64,000 nucleotides of DNA, taken from NCBI GenBank assembly GCA_944381085.1, contig CALWJX010000001.1, forward strand, positions 83,428 through 147,427. Reading direction: 5' to 3'. Of the stretch, positions 1,117 through 9,238 are shown piece after piece; position 1 is the stretch's first letter, and every line of letters begins with the position of its first letter. The notes under the pieces were generated by a model that did not search any database, was not told the origin of the DNA, and saw only the letters and a program-made list of their open reading frames with translations. A program made the translations under genes and the position numbers. The DNA is from an uncultured Clostridia bacterium. Its GTDB lineage: Bacteria > Bacillota > Clostridia > Oscillospirales > CAG-272.

Positions 1117-1173
1117 ACATTATAAAAATAATATCATACAATTAAAAAAATAAAATTTTTTTAAAAAATAGTA

Positions 1174-1202
1174 TTGTATTTTTGTCAAAAATGTGCTATA
1201 AT
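1174..1202 (+). promoter_or_regulatory. Sigma-A-type promoter for the RiPP-like operon
   Basis: TTGTAT (1174-1179), 17-nt spacer, extended -10 TGcTATAAT (TATAAT at 1197-1202). Confidence 0.5.
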
Positions 1203-1261
1203 CTGTTCTCAAGGGAATGATCTGTTTTTTAGTTTGATATTTGAAAGGAATTTTATAATTT

Positions 1262-1384
1262 ATGAAATATGAAAAACCTATAGTTATTATTTATGATGAA
1301 GAAGTAATGAAAGAATTGGAAGCAATGGCGTCTTCCAAATGCCATTGTACTTCAAGTGGTTCAAGAGTAAGTTATGATGAGTAA
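1262..1384 (+). CDS. 40-aa candidate RiPP precursor peptide (MKYEKPIVIIYDEEVMKELEAMASSKCHCTSSGSRVSYDE), absent from the ORF track because it is under 60 aa
   Basis: ATG at 1262 lies about 11 nt after GAAAGGA. TAA at 1382-1384. It sits 58 nt upstream of, and co-directional with, a radical SAM/SPASM gene. Acidic leader-like N-half, then a Cys/Ser-rich C-half (CHC, SSGS). Confidence 0.65.
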   Translation: MKYEKPIVIIYDEEVMKELEAMASSKCHCTSSGSRVSYDE

Positions 1385-1442
1385 AATGAAATTTTGAAAT
1401 AGTTAGATCATTCCCTGATTATTCGATATATAAGGAGTTCAT

Positions 1443-2798
1443 ATGCTTTTTTCCTTTCAAGACTATGTATTTGATTCCGATAGGTTAATTATTTATAATA
1501 TATCCGAGAGCAAAGAGTTTATTGATGTTTTAAAATTAAAATTTGATATTGAAGAAAAAAATAAAGCTGTTTTAGCCGAACTAATATCCAATAAATCGGA
1601 AAATATGCGTATGGATAAAATTGCAATTAACAGAGCAGGCATTTGTTTGACGTATAATTGTAATTTGAGATGCGATTATTGCAGTAATTCCTCCGGCGAT
1701 AATGATACAAATATACTTACAATCGAAGATGTTCAGGTATACATAAAAGACATTATCAAAAAAAGTATAATAAGCAGACTTATAAATAAAAAAATCAAAC
1801 CATTAAATATTTATTTTACTGGAGGGGGAGAGCCTACTTTTAGGTGGGATTTATTCAGAGAGTCGGTTTTATTTATAAAAGAAGAGTGCACGAAAAATAA
1901 TATACCATTGTTTCTCGGTTTAACAACGAACGGCGTTTTGAATGATGAACAGATTGGCTTTATTAGTGACAACGTTGATCATATAATGATATCCTATGAT
2001 GGTTTGCCGGAATTACAGAATAAAAACAGGAAATCGGCAAACCAACAGTGTACAAATGAAATTGTGGAAAATACCATAAAAAGATTATCTGATAAAAAAA
2101 TATCAATGAATGTAAGAACCACTGTTTGGGAAGACGACTATTTTAAATTACGTAGAATGTATGACCATGTTTTTTCATTGGTGGGTGATAACCCGAATGC
2201 GAAGTGGAGTGTTTATCCGACTTTTTATGAGGGTCGTGCATTGGAGAATTTAAAAAATCATGGTAAGACCAATAAAAGTTTTTTATATTATTATATTTCA
2301 TTATTGGATTATATTATTTTGGAGAAAGGCAAGGATAAGTTGAATACTGTCGAAGTCCCATTGTATAATAACGAAATCAGTGAAATCTTTTGCGGAGAGT
2401 ACAGATGCAATAATCCATGGTTACTTCCGGACAAATCAATTGTAACTTGTATAGAGTCATGTAAAGGAAATCAAACAGTAATAGGAAAAATCAATGAAGG
2501 CAAAGTAGAATATTATCATAAATATAATGATAAATTGCTTGAAATAATTCAGCAGAAGTTTGTTGAATGTCGGGAGTGTATTGCATACAATTTTTGTAAA
2601 GGAGGATGTCCCATTTGGGAATTGAGAAATATAAATAAAGACAGCGAATTGCCTGAATGTATGGCTCAGAAAGAATACTGGACTTACGTCATTGAAGCTA
2701 TGTTATTGGGTAAGTACAGTTTTGGATGGCGTCTGCAAAAAATCTGCGTACAAAATTATGAACAGCATGAGGCATATAAATTGGTTTTTGATAAATAA
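1443..2798 (+). CDS. Radical SAM enzyme with C-terminal SPASM domain (peptide-modifying maturase type)
   Basis: CNLRCDYC (CX3CX2C) near residue 72. C-terminal CRECIAYNFCKGGC (CX2CX5CX3C) plus further Cys residues is typical of SPASM auxiliary clusters. RBS AAGGAG lies upstream. Confidence 0.9.
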   Translation: MLFSFQDYVFDSDRLIIYNISESKEFIDVLKLKFDIEEKNKAVLAELISNKSENMRMDKIAINRAGICLTYNCNLRCDYCSNSSGDNDTNILTIEDVQVYIKDIIKKSIISRLINKKIKPLNIYFTGGGEPTFRWDLFRESVLFIKEECTKNNIPLFLGLTTNGVLNDEQIGFISDNVDHIMISYDGLPELQNKNRKSANQQCTNEIVENTIKRLSDKKISMNVRTTVWEDDYFKLRRMYDHVFSLVGDNPNAKWSVYPTFYEGRALENLKNHGKTNKSFLYYYISLLDYIILEKGKDKLNTVEVPLYNNEISEIFCGEYRCNNPWLLPDKSIVTCIESCKGNQTVIGKINEGKVEYYHKYNDKLLEIIQQKFVECRECIAYNFCKGGCPIWELRNINKDSELPECMAQKEYWTYVIEAMLLGKYSFGWRLQKICVQNYEQHEAYKLVFDK

Positions 2799-2820
2799 TA
2801 CTGTTTAATGGAGGTGAAAA

Positions 2821-3135
2821 ATGTTACTTAATGGCAAAGTAATTGAGATTGTATCCTATACCTCGGAGAATATAGATGATGACTTAATTATATATAATGA
2901 ATCATTTAAAAAAATTATAATATTAAATCATACTGCAAAGTATGTGTGGAATTTAATAGTTGGCTGTTATAATAATGGTGAAGACATTGAGGTATCCGAT
3001 ATAGTTTCACATATTAAAGATGTATATAATATATCTCAATGTGAAGACGATAACATTTATAATGATGTGGAAGAAACCTTAGATTTGTTTTTTAAAGCGT
3101 CACTTTTGCGATGTTCTGATGAGGAGCATAATTAA
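2821..3135 (+). CDS. PqqD-like protein (candidate RiPP recognition element)
   Basis: 104 aa, directly after the rSAM gene. The pattern IILNHTAKYVWNLI...DIVSHIKDVYNIS...DVEETLDLFFKASLL resembles the PqqD family profile as I recall it. Confidence 0.7.
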   Translation: MLLNGKVIEIVSYTSENIDDDLIIYNESFKKIIILNHTAKYVWNLIVGCYNNGEDIEVSDIVSHIKDVYNISQCEDDNIYNDVEETLDLFFKASLLRCSDEEHN

Positions 3136-3137
3136 GT

Positions 3138-3959
3138 ATGAAATGCTTTTACAGGTATATTGATAATATACAAATTAGTATTATAATAGAAAATGAACTA
3201 TATGAAGAACACAAATTAATTTTTGATTCGCTATTTATAACATTTTTAGATTATCAAAAAAAAGGATTTTTCAATAATTATTTGTATTATATTTATAAAA
3301 GCAAAAATAATTTGAACGAAATAATACATAATTATAAAATAAGTGATTCGGCAGATAATGATTGGATTTTTTCGCTGATAAATGATTTGGAAAACTTTTA
3401 TGCCGATATATTAAACTGCACTGTGTTGCACGGCTCATGCATACAGATTGAAGGAAAAAATATATTATTGATAGGCGAAAGATGGTCGGGAAAGACAACA
3501 TTGACACAATATTTAACAATAGACATGAAGTGTGGATTTGTCAGCGACGACTGTATTTATCTTTTAAATAATATGCTTATTGGCTTTGGAATGCCGTTGC
3601 CTGTACGCGGTGAAAAAATAGATAATACATATAAAGATTTTTTTATTGGCGCAACGGTAGATTCTGACGGTACAAATCGCATTCTTTACGCTCCTCCGAA
3701 TATAGTTGAAAGAGTTTTTTCTGTCGACTCGGTAATATTCTCTAAATATGTTGAAAGTAAAAACGCAAATATAATTAAGTTGAAATCGGGAGAAGCACTT
3801 GAAAGATTAATAAGAAATGTTCGTTCAAAAAGTACAATGAGTACTTTATTTAATGATATGGTAAGAATATCTAAATTATCAGATTGTTATGTTATGCAAT
3901 ACCCGAGTTGCAATATCGCTTATGAAATGATTTTAGGAGTTATTTTTGATGAAAAATAG
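3138..3959 (+). CDS. HPr kinase/phosphorylase-like P-loop protein
   Basis: LHGSCIQIEGKNILLIGERWSGKTTLTQYL...GFVSDDCIYL parallels the HprK core (HG..v...G.gvLi.G.SG.GKS....L...G..lvaDD). Confidence 0.6.
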   Translation: MKCFYRYIDNIQISIIIENELYEEHKLIFDSLFITFLDYQKKGFFNNYLYYIYKSKNNLNEIIHNYKISDSADNDWIFSLINDLENFYADILNCTVLHGSCIQIEGKNILLIGERWSGKTTLTQYLTIDMKCGFVSDDCIYLLNNMLIGFGMPLPVRGEKIDNTYKDFFIGATVDSDGTNRILYAPPNIVERVFSVDSVIFSKYVESKNANIIKLKSGEALERLIRNVRSKSTMSTLFNDMVRISKLSDCYVMQYPSCNIAYEMILGVIFDEK

Positions 3960-5730
3960 TTTTAAAAAATGGAAAAATTTGACGTGGCTATGCCGCCCCT
4001 ATTGGAAATATGGCAAGGTTTACGTTATTTTATCCTTGTTTTTTGTTGTTATAATGTCGCCTCTTGATGAAATGCTATATGTTTATTCGCCTGAAATAAT
4101 CGTAAGATCTCTGAATGAAGGTCGTTCTTTTTCGTATCTTGTAGTTGTCGCTTTGATAATAGCAGGCGCTAATTTTATAAAAAGTATACCAAGGATGATC
4201 TGTAGTCCGTATTTCACTAAAAAACAAACCGAGATTAACATGAAAGTAAAACGCAACATATATGTAAAGGCGATGGAGATAGACTACAAATATGTGGATT
4301 CTCCCGAATATTACAATGAGTATGCCTGGGCTATGAACGAGTATGTACAGCAGACAAACCAAGCGTTCAGTTTTTCAAAGCGTTTTCTTTCGGCTCTTTT
4401 CAGTATTATAACTCTTTTTTCAATTGTTATGGTGATAGGTCCGTGGCTTATTGTGATAGAGATAATACAGTTGATTTTACAGAAGCTTTTGCTTGCAAGA
4501 AGAAACAAGATTGATATTTGTAAGAAAAACGAAACAGTTCCGGTGGAACGGCGTCTTTCGTATTTTCACAGACTGTTTTATCTTAAAGAGTATTCGGCGG
4601 ATATAAAGACCACGCCTTTAAAGCGATTTGCCTTTGACGGATATGACAAGTCGGGTAAAGAGCAGGTAGATATAAATACCAAGTATGAGAAAAAAGGCGC
4701 GGTTTGTTATATCACTCAGGAATTTCTTTTTATTGTCACCGAGTTTGTTTTGACCTTATATCTTGTACATAGCATTATTGAAGGCAACATTGTGGACGCC
4801 GCTCTGTATATAACCATGAATCTTTCGTTTTACAGGCTTGATTCAAATCTTTACAATCTGATACAGTTGATGGAGGAAGCCAACAATATCTCTATGAACG
4901 CGGATAAAATAAGAGAATTTTTCGATATAAAGTCCAACATTGAGACCAAAAGCACAGACGTACAAATAACCGAGATACATGACCCGTTCGCGGTGCGGTT
5001 TAAAAATGTCGGCTTCTCATATGAAAACTCTGATTTTGCGATTTCGGATTTGAACCTTGATATAAAACCCGGAGAAAAAATCGCCATTGTGGGAGAAAAC
5101 GGAGCCGGGAAATCCACTTTTGTCAAGCTTTTGATGAGGCTGTATGACGTTACGGACGGAGATATTCTTATAAACGGCATTTCAATAAAGGATTATGATG
5201 TGGAACTGTTGCGGCAGCACGTGGGAGTCGCCTTTCAGAACACTAATGTTTATGCCATGAGTTTTGCGGACAATGTATCGCTGTTCAACAAGATATCAGA
5301 GGAAGAGCTTGAGAGAATTTCAAAGGAATACGAATTGGATTCCATTCTTGAAAAAAACCATGCCGATTTTAATTCGGAGCTGACCAGAGAGTTCAGTCCG
5401 GACGGAATAATCCTTTCGGGCGGAGAAGTGCAGAAGATCGCGCTTGCCAGACTTATGACAAAAAAATGGGGACTGCTTTTGCTCGATGAGCCTTCCTCAG
5501 CGCTTGACCCCTTGGCGGAATACAAGCTGAGTAAGCTTATTTTGAGCACCGCCAACCGGGCTACCACTATAATAGTCGCTCACAGACTGTCCACGATACG
5601 GGATGCCGACAGAATAATAGTAATGGAGCGCGGAAAGCTTGAGGAATGCGGCACTCACGATGAACTGATGGAAAAACACGGAAAGTATTATGAAATGTTT
5701 ACCAAACAGGCGGAAAATTATATAAATTAA
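3949..5730 (+). CDS. ABC transporter, fused permease/ATP-binding exporter with no N-terminal peptidase domain
   Basis: N-terminal TM-rich half. Walker A GENGAGKST, signature LSGGEVQK, Walker B LLLLDEPSSALD. ATG 3949 is 9 nt after AGGAG and overlaps the upstream gene. Confidence 0.9.
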   Translation: MKNSFKKWKNLTWLCRPYWKYGKVYVILSLFFVVIMSPLDEMLYVYSPEIIVRSLNEGRSFSYLVVVALIIAGANFIKSIPRMICSPYFTKKQTEINMKVKRNIYVKAMEIDYKYVDSPEYYNEYAWAMNEYVQQTNQAFSFSKRFLSALFSIITLFSIVMVIGPWLIVIEIIQLILQKLLLARRNKIDICKKNETVPVERRLSYFHRLFYLKEYSADIKTTPLKRFAFDGYDKSGKEQVDINTKYEKKGAVCYITQEFLFIVTEFVLTLYLVHSIIEGNIVDAALYITMNLSFYRLDSNLYNLIQLMEEANNISMNADKIREFFDIKSNIETKSTDVQITEIHDPFAVRFKNVGFSYENSDFAISDLNLDIKPGEKIAIVGENGAGKSTFVKLLMRLYDVTDGDILINGISIKDYDVELLRQHVGVAFQNTNVYAMSFADNVSLFNKISEEELERISKEYELDSILEKNHADFNSELTREFSPDGIILSGGEVQKIALARLMTKKWGLLLLDEPSSALDPLAEYKLSKLILSTANRATTIIVAHRLSTIRDADRIIVMERGKLEECGTHDELMEKHGKYYEMFTKQAENYIN

Positions 5731-5844
5731 ACCGATAATTTATTTTGACGTCCGATAATATTGACAAAAGCAGTCATTCTGCAGAACCGACCGAGTATTT
5801 GGGATAAAGTTCATTATGATATGACTGCTTTTTTATGTTTTCAT

Positions 5845-6720
5845 TTACACGCTATGACCGAGTTCCTCATACAGTTTATCTGAAAGCCGGCAGAAATCCT
5901 TTACCGTGAGTTTCTCTCCCCGGATATCCGCGCTGTGCCCGCATGAAGTTATTATTTCCGTGAGCCTTTGCTTTTGTATTTCCGGAAATCCTGTCAAAAG
6001 CGAGTTTGCGAGTGTTTTTCTCCTTTGCTCAAACGCCGCTTTAACCGTTCTGAAAAAGATATCCTCGTTTGAAGGAACGACCGGCTTTTCTTTCCATAGT
6101 TTAATCTGAACCACAGAGGAGTCGACTTTCGGTACCGGCATGAAGTTGTCCGACGTTACGGTGAAAAGAGCGTTTGTCTGTCCGAAATAGTCTATTGCCG
6201 CGGTAATTGCGCCGCAGTTTTTGTTTCCGGCTCCCGCGCATATTCTGTCAGCCACCTCCGACTGAACCATTACCGTAATACTGTCGAACGGCAGCCGGCT
6301 TTCCAAAAGCTTCATAAGTATGGGAGTTGTGATATAATAAGGCAGGTTTGCGCAGACCGAAACCTTTCCCGCGGAAAAATACGGCTTTAAGATTTCCTCA
6401 AGATTTGTTTTCATCACATCGCTGTTTTCGACCCGGACGTTTTTATATCCGTCAAGCGTATAACGCAGTACAGGTATAAGTCCCCCGTCTATTTCAAGGG
6501 CGACAACATTGCGATAACGCGCGGCAAGCTCGCGTGTAAGGCAACCTATGCCGGGACCTATTTCAAGAACGGTTATGTCGGCGTCATCGGAGCAGCAGTA
6601 CGCGATATCCTCGACTGTGCCGTGATTTATAAGAAAATTTTGTCCGAATTCCTTTTTGAATTTCAGTCCGAACATGTCCATGACCTGTTTTATGGTCTTT
6701 GGGTTGCATAGGTCGAGCAT
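5845..6720 (-). CDS. rsmA: 16S rRNA (adenine1518/1519-N6)-dimethyltransferase
   Basis: FGQNFL motif and LEIGPGIGCLT SAM-binding motif. Its start overlaps the upstream stop (TGATG). Confidence 0.95.
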   Translation of the reverse strand: MLDLCNPKTIKQVMDMFGLKFKKEFGQNFLINHGTVEDIAYCCSDDADITVLEIGPGIGCLTRELAARYRNVVALEIDGGLIPVLRYTLDGYKNVRVENSDVMKTNLEEILKPYFSAGKVSVCANLPYYITTPILMKLLESRLPFDSITVMVQSEVADRICAGAGNKNCGAITAAIDYFGQTNALFTVTSDNFMPVPKVDSSVVQIKLWKEKPVVPSNEDIFFRTVKAAFEQRRKTLANSLLTGFPEIQKQRLTEIITSCGHSADIRGEKLTVKDFCRLSDKLYEELGHSV

Positions 6721-7907
6721 CAGCGTTTTTTCCTTTCATAATTCTGCTTGGATTTTGCGGTATTTTTGAAACTTGGCGCGGCTTTAGGCTCAAAGGGTTT
6801 GAAAAACTGATAGAGAAAGCAGGGAATCATGCCGTTGTATAATTTTCTTTTCTTGTCTGCCGGACGTCCGTACAGCTTCTCAAAATAATCGCATGAGGTT
6901 ATTATATACACGTGCCAGCGGTCAAACAGGCAAAAGTTTTTTCCTATATCTCTGTAAAGCTGTTCGGCTTGCCGTATGTCGCCCATTCTCTCTCCGTACG
7001 GAGGGTTGCAGACGATGCTGCCCTTTATGCCGTCGGGTTTTTGTATCCGGCGGGCGTCACCTGTAAAAATGCGCATGTTTTCCTCGACGCCGGCGCGCAG
7101 GGCGGACTCGTACGCGATATCAAGCACCTGCTCGTCCGTGTCGGAAGCCCAGACCTCAAATTTTGAACCGGTTATGATTTTATCCTTGGCTTCATCTCTG
7201 GCGTTCTGCCACATCTTTTTGTCGATGCGACTGAATTTTTCGGAGTCGAAATCACGGTTAAGCCCGGGAGCTATATTTTTTACTATCATGGCGGCTTCAA
7301 TCGCGATGGTCCCGGAGCCGCAGAAAGGGTCCCAAAAGAGAATATCCTCCGACGGTCTGGAGGTTAAGGCGATTGCCGCCGCGAGCGTTTCTCTGAGCGG
7401 GGCGGGTCCGGCTTTCGGACGGTATCCTCTTTTGTGAAGAGCAATACCGGAGGTGTCTATAAGCAGCATTGCCTCGTCCTTGAGTATGAAAAACTCTATT
7501 TTATATTTGGTACCGGTTTCTTCAAACCAGGAGATATTGTAAACCGAGGCAAGCCGATTGACGACCGCTTTTTTTACTATGCTCTGACAGTCGGGAATTG
7601 AGGTGAGTTTGCTTTTTATCGAGTGTCCCGAAACCGGAAACGCGTCGTTTTTGCCTATCCATTCTTCCCAAGGAAGCGAATATGTACCGTCAAAAAGCTC
7701 GGAAAAACTTTCCGCCTTGAAAGAGCCGAGCTTTATGAATACTCTCTCCGCGCAGCGCAGATTGATATTTGCCCTGGGGATATCACATTCAAGCCCCTCA
7801 AAGGTCACTCTGCCGTCAATTGTTTCTGTCCTTTTAAGACCGAGCGCGTCTATTTCTTCTCCGAGCTGCTTTTCAAGCCCGAAAAGACAAGTTGCCACAA
7901 GCTGCAT
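6720..7907 (-). CDS. THUMP-domain class I SAM-dependent RNA methyltransferase
   Basis: DPFCGSGTIAIEAA and NPPYGERMG motifs. I prefer ATG 7907 (MQLVATCLFGLEK) because GGAG lies 7 nt upstream. The track start at 8003 adds 32 unsupported residues. Confidence 0.85.
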   Translation of the reverse strand: MQLVATCLFGLEKQLGEEIDALGLKRTETIDGRVTFEGLECDIPRANINLRCAERVFIKLGSFKAESFSELFDGTYSLPWEEWIGKNDAFPVSGHSIKSKLTSIPDCQSIVKKAVVNRLASVYNISWFEETGTKYKIEFFILKDEAMLLIDTSGIALHKRGYRPKAGPAPLRETLAAAIALTSRPSEDILFWDPFCGSGTIAIEAAMIVKNIAPGLNRDFDSEKFSRIDKKMWQNARDEAKDKIITGSKFEVWASDTDEQVLDIAYESALRAGVEENMRIFTGDARRIQKPDGIKGSIVCNPPYGERMGDIRQAEQLYRDIGKNFCLFDRWHVYIITSCDYFEKLYGRPADKKRKLYNGMIPCFLYQFFKPFEPKAAPSFKNTAKSKQNYERKKR

Positions 7908-8100
7908 ATTTAATCTCCATTCCGCCGCCGAACGGCGGCACAAATCGCAACCGTGAATGTTGCGGCGGACTGCAAAATTCGCGCGTGAAAAAACATTTCT
8001 CATAGTTAGAAGAATGTAACTTTCACGCTTTGTGTTCTTATATTTATGTTACTTTAATTATAACCGACACAGGCGGTTTTGTCAATAAAAATTTTTTCTC

Positions 8101-8134
8101 AAAAAACAAGCCGGACTTTTCGCGCGTGTCGGGC
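8101..8134 (-). terminator. Candidate terminator after leuB
   Basis: On the minus strand GCCCGAC/GTCCGGC form a stem with one mismatch, followed by TTGTTTTTT. Confidence 0.4.
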
Positions 8135-8167
8135 GGAGGAAAAGCCGGCTTTTCTGTTTTTCGACGC

Positions 8168-9238
8168 TTATATATTTGCCGCTATCATATCTCCCATTTC
8201 GGAGCACGAAAGCTTCCTGCAACCCTCCTGCATAATATCGGAGGTTCTGTAATTTTGGTTCAGAACACTGTTGACGGCGTTTTCGATGTCGTCGGCTTCT
8301 TTTGCCATATCAAACGAGTAGCGGAGCATCATCGCAGCGGAGAGGACAGTTCCTATAGGGTTGGCAATATTCATTCCCGCAATATCGGGAGCCGAGCCGT
8401 GTATGGGCTCATACATTCCGAGGGTGGTTGACGACAGCGAGGCGGATGGCATCATGCCTATCGAGCCTGTAAGCATCGAAGCCTCATCGGAAAGTATGTC
8501 TCCGAACATATTTTCGGTGACTATAACGTCGAACTGAGCGGGATTTTTTATCAGCTGCATTGCGGTATTGTCAACAAGTATGTCGCTGTATTCGACCTGG
8601 GGATACTCTTCGGAAAGCCTGTGCATGGTCTTTCTCCACAGGCGAGATGTGTCAAGCACATTTGCCTTATCTACGGAAGCAAGCTTTTTGTTCCTCTTCA
8701 TGGCGCAGTCAAACGCGACTCTGCCTATTCTTTCGATTTCATGCTCATAGTAAGACATCACATCGTAAGAATACATTTCGCCGTTCTTTTCCTCGGTTTT
8801 TCTTTCGCCGAAATATATACCTCCGGTAAGCTCGCGCACTATCATCAGGTCAATTCCGTTTCCGACAACCGACTGCTTGAGCGGAGATGAGTCAGCCAGC
8901 TGTAAAAACAGCTTTGTGGGACGGAGATTGGCGAAAAGCCCGAGTTCTTTTCTTACAGCCAGAAGCGCCTTTTCCGGACGTATCGAGGGTGGACATGAAT
9001 CCCACTTCGGACCTCCCACCGCGCCGAGCAGAACGCTGTCCGCGCCTTTACACTTTTCCATTCCCTCGTCGGTTATCGGTACTCCGAATTTGTCGATTGA
9101 GCATCCTCCGATATCGACATATGTATACTTGAAAGTGTGATTGTATTTATGAGCGATTTTATCAAGCACTTTTATCGCTTCTCTGACGATTTCGGGACCT
9201 ATGCCGTCGCCGGAAAGCACTGTTATTTTCTTTTCCAT
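8168..9238 (-). CDS. leuB: 3-isopropylmalate dehydrogenase
   Basis: ITVLSGDGIGPEI and LLGAVGGPKWD motifs, 356 aa, in leu operon context. Confidence 0.95.
   Translation of the reverse strand: MEKKITVLSGDGIGPEIVREAIKVLDKIAHKYNHTFKYTYVDIGGCSIDKFGVPITDEGMEKCKGADSVLLGAVGGPKWDSCPPSIRPEKALLAVRKELGLFANLRPTKLFLQLADSSPLKQSVVGNGIDLMIVRELTGGIYFGERKTEEKNGEMYSYDVMSYYEHEIERIGRVAFDCAMKRNKKLASVDKANVLDTSRLWRKTMHRLSEEYPQVEYSDILVDNTAMQLIKNPAQFDVIVTENMFGDILSDEASMLTGSIGMMPSASLSSTTLGMYEPIHGSAPDIAGMNIANPIGTVLSAAMMLRYSFDMAKEADDIENAVNSVLNQNYRTSDIMQEGCRKLSCSEMGDMIAANI

Follow-up and report, generated by a model that had tools for sequence, protein, structure and literature searches.

The DNA analysed here is a 64-kb stretch (64,000 nucleotides, the whole of which we call the window) of contig CALWJX010000001.1, positions 83,428 to 147,427 of the forward strand, from an uncultured Clostridia bacterium of the Oscillospirales (assembly GCA_944381085.1). 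Near its left end, an open reading frame (ORF) of 40 codons is followed by four co-directional genes, for a radical S-adenosylmethionine (rSAM) enzyme, a PqqD-family protein, a P-loop kinase and an ABC exporter. We take these five genes as the probable machinery for a peptide that is made on ribosomes and modified after translation (RiPP), with the PqqD-family protein serving as RiPP recognition element (RRE). The genes of the cluster and the motifs within its first gene are, in window coordinates:

1262..1384, +, predicted precursor peptide gene (ATG 1262, TAA 1382-1384; 40 aa plus stop: MKYEKPIVIIYDEEVMKELEAMASSKCHCTSSGSRVSYDE)
1268..1285, +, Y3-E-K-P6-I-V8 (YxxPxV), predicted motif for leader recognition, shared by almost every precursor of the family
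1319..1336, +, E20-A-M-A-S-S25 at the junction ([EQ]-A-x-A-x-S), immediately ahead of the first Cys; S25 is the candidate phosphosite and A21-x-A23 a candidate signal-peptidase-type cleavage site
1340..1369, +, core motif C27-H-C29-T-S-S-G33-S-R35-V36, predicted radical SAM target
1443..2798, +, radical SAM/SPASM peptide maturase, 451 aa (Pfam Radical_SAM, 5e-15)
2821..3135, +, discrete PqqD-type RRE, 104 aa (Pfam PqqD, 26.4 bits, above the gathering threshold of 23.4)
3138..3959, +, HprK-like P-loop kinase, 273 aa (H98-G99, G113xRxSGKT121, D137-D138)
3946..5730, +, MsbA-like ABC exporter, 594 aa (fused transmembrane and nucleotide-binding domains; Pfam ABC_tran)

A first-pass annotation, made from the letters alone, had named the ORF at 1262-1384 as the likely precursor. 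Its description was accurate in every particular: the sequence itself, the GAAAGGA upstream of the ATG, the two Cys (C27 and C29) and seven Ser/Thr (S24, S25, T30, S31, S32, S34 and S37) of the C-terminal part, and the lack of a GG or GA double-glycine site within the 40-aa peptide. The assignment as precursor is borne out by comparison with about 100 loci bearing homologues of the rSAM gene, gathered from genome and metagenome collections in an alignment-based scan (a scan of genome contigs with the single rSAM protein gave no matches). About 60 of 66 related loci, and almost all of those with upstream sequence, have a short ORF of this design immediately upstream of their rSAM gene: its N-terminal leader reads M-x-Y-x-x-P-x-(V/I) and its C-terminal core C-x-C...G. 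No alternative short ORF shows conservation at that place, so the outcome that the first-pass annotation had named as refuting its call did not occur. In the window, and in almost all related loci examined, the rSAM gene comes directly after the precursor, and the synteny peptide-rSAM-RRE(-kinase)(-ABC) is conserved across bacteria and archaea.

Selection on the ORF is specific to its reading frame. Over 25 leader codons compared with four close relatives (L101, L021, L022 and L028), the annotated frame gives a ratio of nonsynonymous to synonymous differences (pN/pS) of 0.10-0.23, against 0.55-6.3 for the two shifted frames, a coding constraint that indirectly supports translation of the peptide; the codon differences in the leader fall mostly at third positions, and the non-coding flanks of L101 cannot be aligned to the window. 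A hidden Markov model built from 20 family peptides has this ORF as its sole match in the window (E = 5e-25, the next being ~1), and a profile search of 1.84 billion representative proteins returned 17 called homologues of the peptide; curated family libraries gave no match for it. The ORF is short, adjoins a modifying enzyme, and combines a conserved leader with a more variable core, the usual arrangement of a RiPP precursor. The division into leader and core is seen most directly in the JGI contig L101, which has the window's leader with a different core, TSCYCMSGMGILHTGPGKG, so that the first ~23-25 residues do behave as the leader that had been proposed. We regard the ORF as very probably a genuine precursor on which the adjacent rSAM enzyme and RRE would act. 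An antisense 30-aa ORF overlapping it (1253-1345) was rejected as a gene.

The CHC motif singled out in the first-pass annotation proves to be conserved as an invariant CxC, found in 34 of 34 motif instances. Across these instances, from 28 peptides, the core reads C(100%)-[HNK]-C(100%)-[TAS]-x-[SG]-G(82%)-[SA](97%)-[RK](97%)-[VAM](97%)-[CS]-[YH]. Position +10 is Ser in the window and a third Cys in 13 instances; cores with 'RVSY' recur (L047, L049, P0141 and P0146). Among close relatives the precursors are MEYEKPTILIYDEEVLKELQAMASSKCNCTASGSRVCYEA in L021, ...ALASSTCNCTASGSKVCYDAA in L022 and ...AAAASTCHCTASGSKVCHKPTY in L025, and distant ones include those of Treponema (L001, ...ACHCTAGGSRVRY...), Chitinispirillales (L002, with three ACxCTMGQxxA repeats) and Planctomycetaceae (L003, ...CKCMSGQAKV). 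The motif is repeated two or three times in the precursors of termite-gut-type loci (L002 5581-5898; L045, L047, L049; L062), and these tandem copies resemble those of iteratively cross-linked radical SAM RiPPs.

Some precursors are peculiar: (i) L006 (5297-5892) and L012 (3783-4004) have long, Cys/Gly-rich cores with multiple Cys. (ii) One group (L053, L057 and L065) has an FExP leader and CPDAT...C cores, with two copies in L057. (iii) A human-gut contig, L029 (1984-2109), contains the L028 precursor in frameshifted form (MKYMKPQVAIYELCKNLKPQ...), which reflects either misassembly or a pseudogene. (iv) Upstream of the L101 precursor lies the C-terminus of another SPASM-like protein (L101 1-609, ...CKECPILHNECRDGCINL), which suggests a two-rSAM cluster in that organism.

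The enzyme encoded immediately downstream of the precursor has the CxxxCxxC motif of the SAM cluster (C73x3C77x2C80), a GGGEP motif and the C-terminal seven-Cys SPASM motif (C376x2C379x5C385x3C389 plus C317, C336 and C406), all of them invariant in 37 sequences; the seven invariant C-terminal Cys identify it as a SPASM enzyme with two auxiliary clusters. It has at least 156 homologues. The best NCBIfam match is the PapB ranthipeptide maturase (NF047865, 2e-28), but the score of 99.5 bits against a cutoff of 340 places the enzyme outside the PapB family; anSME is the second NCBIfam match, and anSME (1e-13) and CteB (3e-13) are its sequence matches in the PDB. Because PapB/CteB/anSME-type SPASM enzymes are its nearest, though distant, relatives and two Cys of the core are invariant, a thioether is the most economical guess for the product, one to which we give roughly even weight. 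The conserved Lys/Arg of the core is an alternative acceptor.

What the first-pass annotation overlooked was the YxxP motif of the leader and its link to the RREs of lasso-type pathways and of those for linear polyphosphorylated peptides (LPP). The window leader fits the definition [Y/W]xxPx[L/V/I/F/A], a motif bound by discrete lasso B1 RREs and by LppB, the RRE of the LPP system (PMC13381572). A profile of the family RREs (23 PqqD-like proteins) has as its closest solved relatives the lasso protein TbiB1 (8e-4) and LppB (9x8z chain B, 4e-3); a PDB sequence search with the single RRE sequence gave no useful match. The only invariant residues of the RRE family, N36 and D82 in window numbering, align, in what is a weak alignment, with N33 and D70 of LppB, where the 18-residue tag offset was confirmed by comparing the chain numbering with the residues named in PMC13381572. 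In the LppB crystal structure, N33 fixes the kink at the motif Pro and D70 hydrogen-bonds the motif Tyr (PMC13381572). These matches support, indirectly, the predicted binding of Y3...P6 by the window RRE.

A histidine-glycine pair, a P-loop and an aspartate pair form the catalytic signature of HprK/P. The kinase has all three (H98-G99, G113..GKT121 and D137-D138), and they are invariant in the family. All 12 family kinases match TIGR04352 (HprK_rel_A; best E 1.5e-12) below its cutoff of 200, the window protein at 23 bits. A PDB sequence search with the single kinase sequence gave no useful match and the kinase profile matched only P-loops, so the assignment of the fold rests on an AlphaFold2 (AF2) model (pLDDT 87.8) and Foldseek, which finds ATP-PEPCK (6e-9) and HprK/P (2e-5 and weaker), as expected for the PEPCK/HprK fold.

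The presence of the kinase gene goes together with one feature of the precursor. The junction motif [EQ]-A-x-A-x-S is found in 12 of 12 distinct precursors from kinase-positive loci and in 0 of 20 from kinase-negative loci, the latter counted where at least 1.8 kb of downstream sequence was available (Fisher p = 4e-9, uncorrected for phylogeny). Its Ser always lies 22 residues after the Tyr of YxxP, even in the most divergent kinase-positive locus (L015, HEVP...TALAGS). In a neighbour-joining (NJ) tree of the rSAM proteins, kinase-positive loci occupy at least four places, i.e. the kinase was gained or lost several times independently: the kinase-less L001 is nested within the window's clade, and the kinase-positive L052 is sister to the kinase-less L054 and L009, all with the core CxCFSGKSTH[ST]. 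That the junction Ser alone tracks the kinase points to S25, and not the core serines, as the likely target, and we lean somewhat towards this assignment. The earlier proposal that the HprK-like protein phosphorylates the peptide's serines is therefore narrowed to the candidate at the junction; core serines are not specific to kinase-positive loci. The predicted site parallels that of LppK, whose target for polyphosphorylation is Ser3 of the LPP core, right behind the leader (PMC13381572).

A gene for a small peptidase (GxSMxP...GDI...IHR) accompanies the kinase wherever a kinase-positive locus offers enough sequence, the window and L021 being the exceptions, and is present in none of the kinase-negative loci. 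It matches best the archaeal-type signal peptidase I (TIGR02228; three of five above the curated cutoff) and also Pfam S24 and S26; judged by these matches, it is the same kind of enzyme as LppS, the signal peptidase I (SpI)-like peptidase of the LPP system. Most kinase-positive loci that carry the peptidase also encode an NTP_transf_5 nucleotidyltransferase, like LppN; neither gene type was ever found in kinase-negative loci. Type I signal peptidases follow the classical -3/-1 rule. The conserved A-x-A before the Ser fits this rule, and cleavage is therefore predicted after A23 (AMA/SS), leaving a 17-residue core; the A-M-A-S pair to which the first-pass annotation drew attention is thus part of a conserved motif, A21-x-A23-x-S25. 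In the LPP pathway, cleavage by LppS depends on phosphorylation by LppK (PMC13381572).

The exporter matches the NCBIfam MsbA model over residues 24-586 (6e-64), and bacteriocin exporter models match it only from about position 160 of the models onward. It bears no C39 peptidase domain, and a double-glycine leader processed by a C39 exporter was ruled out on this ground and for want of a GG/GA site. Some relatives have further genes: one for an acyl carrier protein together with one for an FkbH-domain protein (TIGR01686, 5e-67), one for a PP-loop protein of diphthamide-synthase-like type and, upstream, one for a 350-aa protein with an ArsR-type helix-turn-helix. They suggest extra tailoring, possibly on the phosphate, plus dedicated regulation. 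No homologue of the SpI-like peptidase, NTP_transf_5, ArsR-type or FkbH proteins lies within the 64-kb window. Locus coordinates in the relatives are:

LppS/LppN-type genes: L022 7599-8279; L025 5145-5567, 5574-6458; L028 9354-10665; L052 6063-7422; L010 11664-12131, 4703-5608; L013 12086-13326
Extra accessory genes: L021 6230-8047, 122-1174; L052 7419-8038; L028 10955-11326; L005 10306-11013, 4263-5327; L010 10386-11081; L013 10330-11061

The five genes lie together between two genes that flank the island, and the surrounding sequence contains several putative expression signals:

39-1007, typA/bipA, flank of the island
1139..5860, +, AT-rich island with the whole five-gene cluster (4.7 kb; ~27-40% GC vs ~50% in the flanks)
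1194..1202, +, promoter-like extended -10 element TGCTATAAT, predicted from sequence only
1212..1223, +, 5' arm (AGGGAATGATCT) of a predicted long-range stem in the RNA, forming a perfect inverted repeat of 12 nt with 1405-1416
1243..1249, +, Shine-Dalgarno-like GAAAGGA, 12 nt before ATG 1262, a rather long spacer
1405..1416, +, 3' arm (AGATCATTCCCT) of the same stem, shortly before the ribosome-binding site of the rSAM gene
5845-6720, -, rsmA, flank of the island

Positions 1-1138 and 5861-8858 of the window are 96.5% identical to L104, from an uncultured Eubacteriales metagenome-assembled genome, in which about 320 nt take the place of the island. With a near-identical genome lacking the cluster, the island is strain-variable in this gut Oscillospiraceae/Eubacteriales lineage. 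The L104 spacer (2999-3450) still resembles window 1139-1195 and has TCATTCCCT, similar to the 3' stem arm, a hint that a deletion may have left a scar; at the same site other relatives have 1.7-6 kb of variable DNA. Copies of the locus that are near-identical, with one amino-acid change in the peptide, were found in independent metagenomes (L102, L103, P0121 and P0123). A GC-rich hairpin (1076-1114, AAACCCCGCGG...CCGCGGGATTT) after typA, at the end of the conserved flank before the island, is likely an intrinsic terminator.

The extended -10 element is identical in L102 and L103; a consensus scan does not list it because the -35 is weak. The ribosome-binding site of relatives, at the same place as the GAAAGGA, is GAAAGGAG or AGGAGG, with a spacing of 6-9 nt. 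The stem formed by 1212-1223 and 1405-1416 brackets the precursor ORF and closes the minimum free energy fold of 1209-1420 (-52 kcal/mol, z = -4.58), and an inverted repeat of 12 nt was reached in 0 of 300 shuffles. The same arms, with one G.U pair, are present in L021, and stems of different sequence run from flank to flank in L025 (16 nt), L005 (14 nt), and L052 and L050 (11 nt); in other loci its place is taken by a local GC hairpin that follows the peptide gene. The bracketing stem may act in processing or stability of the mRNA and so uncouple expression of the precursor from that of the enzyme. In addition, the ribosome-binding region of the precursor (1241-1250, TTGAAAGGAA) is a perfect complement of TTCCTTTCAA at 1451-1460, in rSAM codons 3-6, a pairing that may have arisen fortuitously, the DNA being AT-rich, or may serve in translational coupling.

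Other explanations of the locus differ greatly in how well they fare. The view that the frame is open merely by chance, in intergenic DNA rich in AT, with the rSAM enzyme acting on another substrate, could appeal to its mere 40 codons, its absence from curated libraries and the overlapping antisense ORF, yet deep conservation, frame-specific purifying selection, a conserved ribosome-binding site and a leader motif fitting the adjacent type of RRE already refute it, and its residual probability is negligible by these comparisons. Granting a real precursor, the rSAM enzyme might install something other than a thioether, for instance formylglycine, which anSME makes by oxidising Cys or Ser, a C-C or C-O cross-link, an epimerised residue, or a C-terminal change of the kind that MftC makes; the CxC would then serve chiefly as ligand of the auxiliary Fe-S cluster or of a metal in the product. 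Among relatives of solved structure anSME is indeed the best by sequence, over nearly the full length (residues 72-418), the Cys/Ser alternation at core position +10 recalls the Cys/Ser tolerance of anSME, the peptides of some relatives (L011, L015, L025 and L028) end in Tyr, and other pathways with a discrete RRE and a SPASM enzyme, PqqD/PqqE and MftB/MftC, form C-C bonds. The anSME target motif C/S-x-P/A-x-R is however absent from the core, the C-terminal residue is not conserved, the curated model scoring best is that of a ranthipeptide maturase, and two invariant Cys in a short core repeated in multi-core precursors is the pattern of thioether RiPPs (freyrasin, StsA), so that we rate a non-thioether product as rather improbable.

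A comparably low probability goes to the idea that S25 is not the kinase's target, the enzyme acting instead on core serines (S31, S32, S34 and S37) or serving as a non-catalytic scaffold or ATP-dependent chaperone like ScmC. The core is Ser-rich, several kinase-positive cores end in Ser (CCPTGKTNS, CKCFSGKSTHS), weak matches to ScmC and ScmD exist, and lasso-associated HprK-like kinases phosphorylate a C-terminal core Ser in the work that PMC13381572 cites. Against this, no core Ser is specific to kinase-positive loci, being present also in the kinase-less L001 (GGSRV) and L054/L009 (GKSTHT), and L054 shares its core with the kinase-positive L052; the only feature tracking the kinase is the junction motif, its Ser fixed at Tyr+22, and the invariant His-Gly, P-loop and Asp-Asp argue for an active enzyme. 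Less likely still, the window cluster could be a decaying or non-functional remnant that has lost its leader peptidase, nucleotidyltransferase and regulator and makes no mature product in this strain. The four gene types missing from the 64 kb, unlike in most kinase-positive relatives, would fit such decay, as would the missing island in a near-identical genome, the Ser where most close relatives carry a third Cys, and the long Shine-Dalgarno spacing. But the five ORFs are all intact and no invariant catalytic residue is missing, near-identical copies occur in independent metagenomes, the sister locus L021 also has no peptidase in its available 5 kb downstream, 'RVSY' cores recur, and a housekeeping signal peptidase could cut the AxA site.

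We favour, with fair assurance, a radical-SAM RiPP pathway that uses lasso/LPP-type leader recognition together with a serine kinase. Several points count against it: the window is without the peptidase and nucleotidyltransferase usual beside the kinase, so that the model has no enzyme of the cluster to remove the leader, and the island may be a version that is reduced or has decayed in part; the RRE aligns to LppB only weakly (E = 4e-3) and a single-sequence AF2 model of the RRE was unusable (pLDDT 42); the rSAM enzyme scores far below every curated family cutoff, so that thioether formation is an extrapolation; Cys and Ser alternate at core position +10, a feature that the model does not explain; and the association of kinase and Ser lacks phylogenetic correction, the tree being a simple NJ one.

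From what was observed directly, namely conservation and constraint of the ORF, gene order, domain identities, co-variation of kinase, serine and peptidase, and the island, we infer the following steps. Residues 1 to ~23 would act as leader, with YxxPxV bound as a beta-strand by the discrete RRE, as in lasso and LPP pathways. The RRE-held substrate would be presented to the SPASM enzyme and its core modified at C27-x-C29...G33-S-R35-V, the likeliest product having one or two intramolecular Cys thioether rings, to a Gly C-alpha (sactionine-type) or to a side-chain carbon (ranthionine-type). The HprK-like kinase would phosphorylate the invariant junction S25, and the leader would be cut at A21-x-A23, in relatives by the co-encoded archaeal-type signal peptidase I, which the window does not encode. 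The modified product of ~17 residues (SSKCHCTSSGSRVSYDE) would then be exported by the MsbA-like ABC transporter.

More speculatively, and with less than even confidence, the family may form an undescribed RiPP class, in which the YxxP leader and RRE recruit in turn a SPASM cross-linker, an HprK-like (poly)phosphorylating kinase acting at the Tyr+22 Ser, and a third enzyme; the module of kinase, peptidase and leader extension would be gained and lost together, and gut anaerobes, methanogens among them, would export small peptides bearing phosphate and thioether bridges as the products.

This family of radical-SAM-modified peptides appears to be undescribed so far, its toolkit of YxxP leader, RRE, kinase and exporter being known from LPP and paeninodin-type lasso pathways. 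Literature searches under HprK or YxxP plus radical SAM, SynChlorMet and peptide strings found no description of it, the six unnamed groups of PMC10288494 lying outside their scope. The comparison provides an uncurated radical SAM family of >150 members, spread over gut Clostridia, Treponema, Planctomycetota, Chitinispirillales, Opitutales and Methanocorpusculum, with a defined substrate, leader logic and conserved core motif. With substrate and motifs defined, the chemistry is directly testable with three to five small genes, and the placement of the phosphosite at S25, a fixed ruler distance from the RRE-binding motif, is a falsifiable prediction. The work also links the toolkit of LPP and phosphorylated lasso peptides (YxxP leader, RRE, HprK-like kinase and SpI-like peptidase) to radical SAM cross-linking, which suggests that it is a portable module used by several RiPP classes.

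Among known systems, ranthipeptides and SCIFF peptides (PapB/freyrasin, CteB/thermocellin) likewise have a SPASM maturase and Cys-containing, sometimes repeated cores; in the window the RRE is discrete, not fused, and the core CxC...G-[SA]-[RK] has neither the Cx3D/E nor the SCIFF spacing. A module of kinase plus signal peptidase is, to our knowledge, foreign to ranthipeptide clusters. Membership in a curated ranthipeptide or sactipeptide family was rejected, all scores falling below cutoff. The SynChlorMet cassette (ScmC, ScmD, ScmE/F; TIGR04248, TIGR04249) resembles our cluster in having SPASM rSAMs with PqqD-related and HprK-like proteins. It is uncharacterised as far as we know, and we know of no YxxP precursor reported for it. 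The matches are weak and far below the cutoffs: ScmD in four of 23 RREs (best 7e-4), ScmC at 0.12, and a precomputed Pfam ScmC match in L022. The pyrroloquinoline quinone (PQQ) and mycofactocin pathways (PqqD/PqqE, MftB/MftC) share the small precursor, discrete PqqD-type RRE and SPASM enzyme, but their products are redox cofactors, formed through C-C chemistry at Glu/Tyr or Val-Tyr, and they have no exporter or kinase, whereas our family has invariant Cys, variable or repeated cores and an exporter.

For the cross-linking logic of 'CxC...G', the nearest precedent by analogy is StsB of Streptomyces sparsogenes (Precord et al. 2023, PMC10288494), which forms Cys-to-Gly C-alpha sactionines on the StsA core CxCxCx4GxGxG (PMC10288494). 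Both have a CxC-containing core followed by a conserved Gly; the comparison is between the motifs, and StsA differs in having three Cys and three Gly, StsB groups with MftC, and no kinase is reported.

Paeninodin-type lasso clusters (split B1/B2, C, HprK-like kinase and ABC exporter) are alike in their discrete PqqD-type B1, [Y/W]xxP leader, accessory kinase and exporter, and among solved structures the lasso protein TbiB1 (8e-4) comes closest to the window RRE family. Their phosphosite, by contrast, is a C-terminal Ser, compared with the predicted leader/core junction here, where the class-defining enzyme is a SPASM rSAM. A lasso cluster was rejected: none of the five cluster proteins matches cyclase C or the B2 protease, and the core is without macrolactam features.

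The LPP system of Paenibacillus alginolyticus (LppA/K/B/S/D/N; Popov et al. 2026, PMC13381572) has as its core genes an SpI-like peptidase, a discrete RRE, a kinase of the HprK-like type, an NTP transferase and also an exporter that resembles MsbA. Its clusters are described with no mention of a radical SAM enzyme, and its products as linear (PMC13381572). Membership was rejected, given the rSAM enzyme, a different leader consensus, and the absence of peptidase and nucleotidyltransferase from the window. The LPP leader reads YxxPxVLxHQxIxFETxxS, with the Ser at Tyr+18, and that of our family YxxPx(V/I)x(I/V)Yx8[EQ]AxAxS, with the Ser at Tyr+22, so that only YxxPxV is common to both; LPP hosts are Bacilli, and ours are gut Clostridia, other bacterial phyla and methanogens. 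Of the LPP core set the window retains RRE, kinase and MsbA-like exporter without an SpI-like peptidase or NTP transferase in its 64 kb, while most kinase-positive relatives carry both, and the family RRE profile matches LppB (9x8z), its invariant Asn and Asp fitting LppB N33 and D70.

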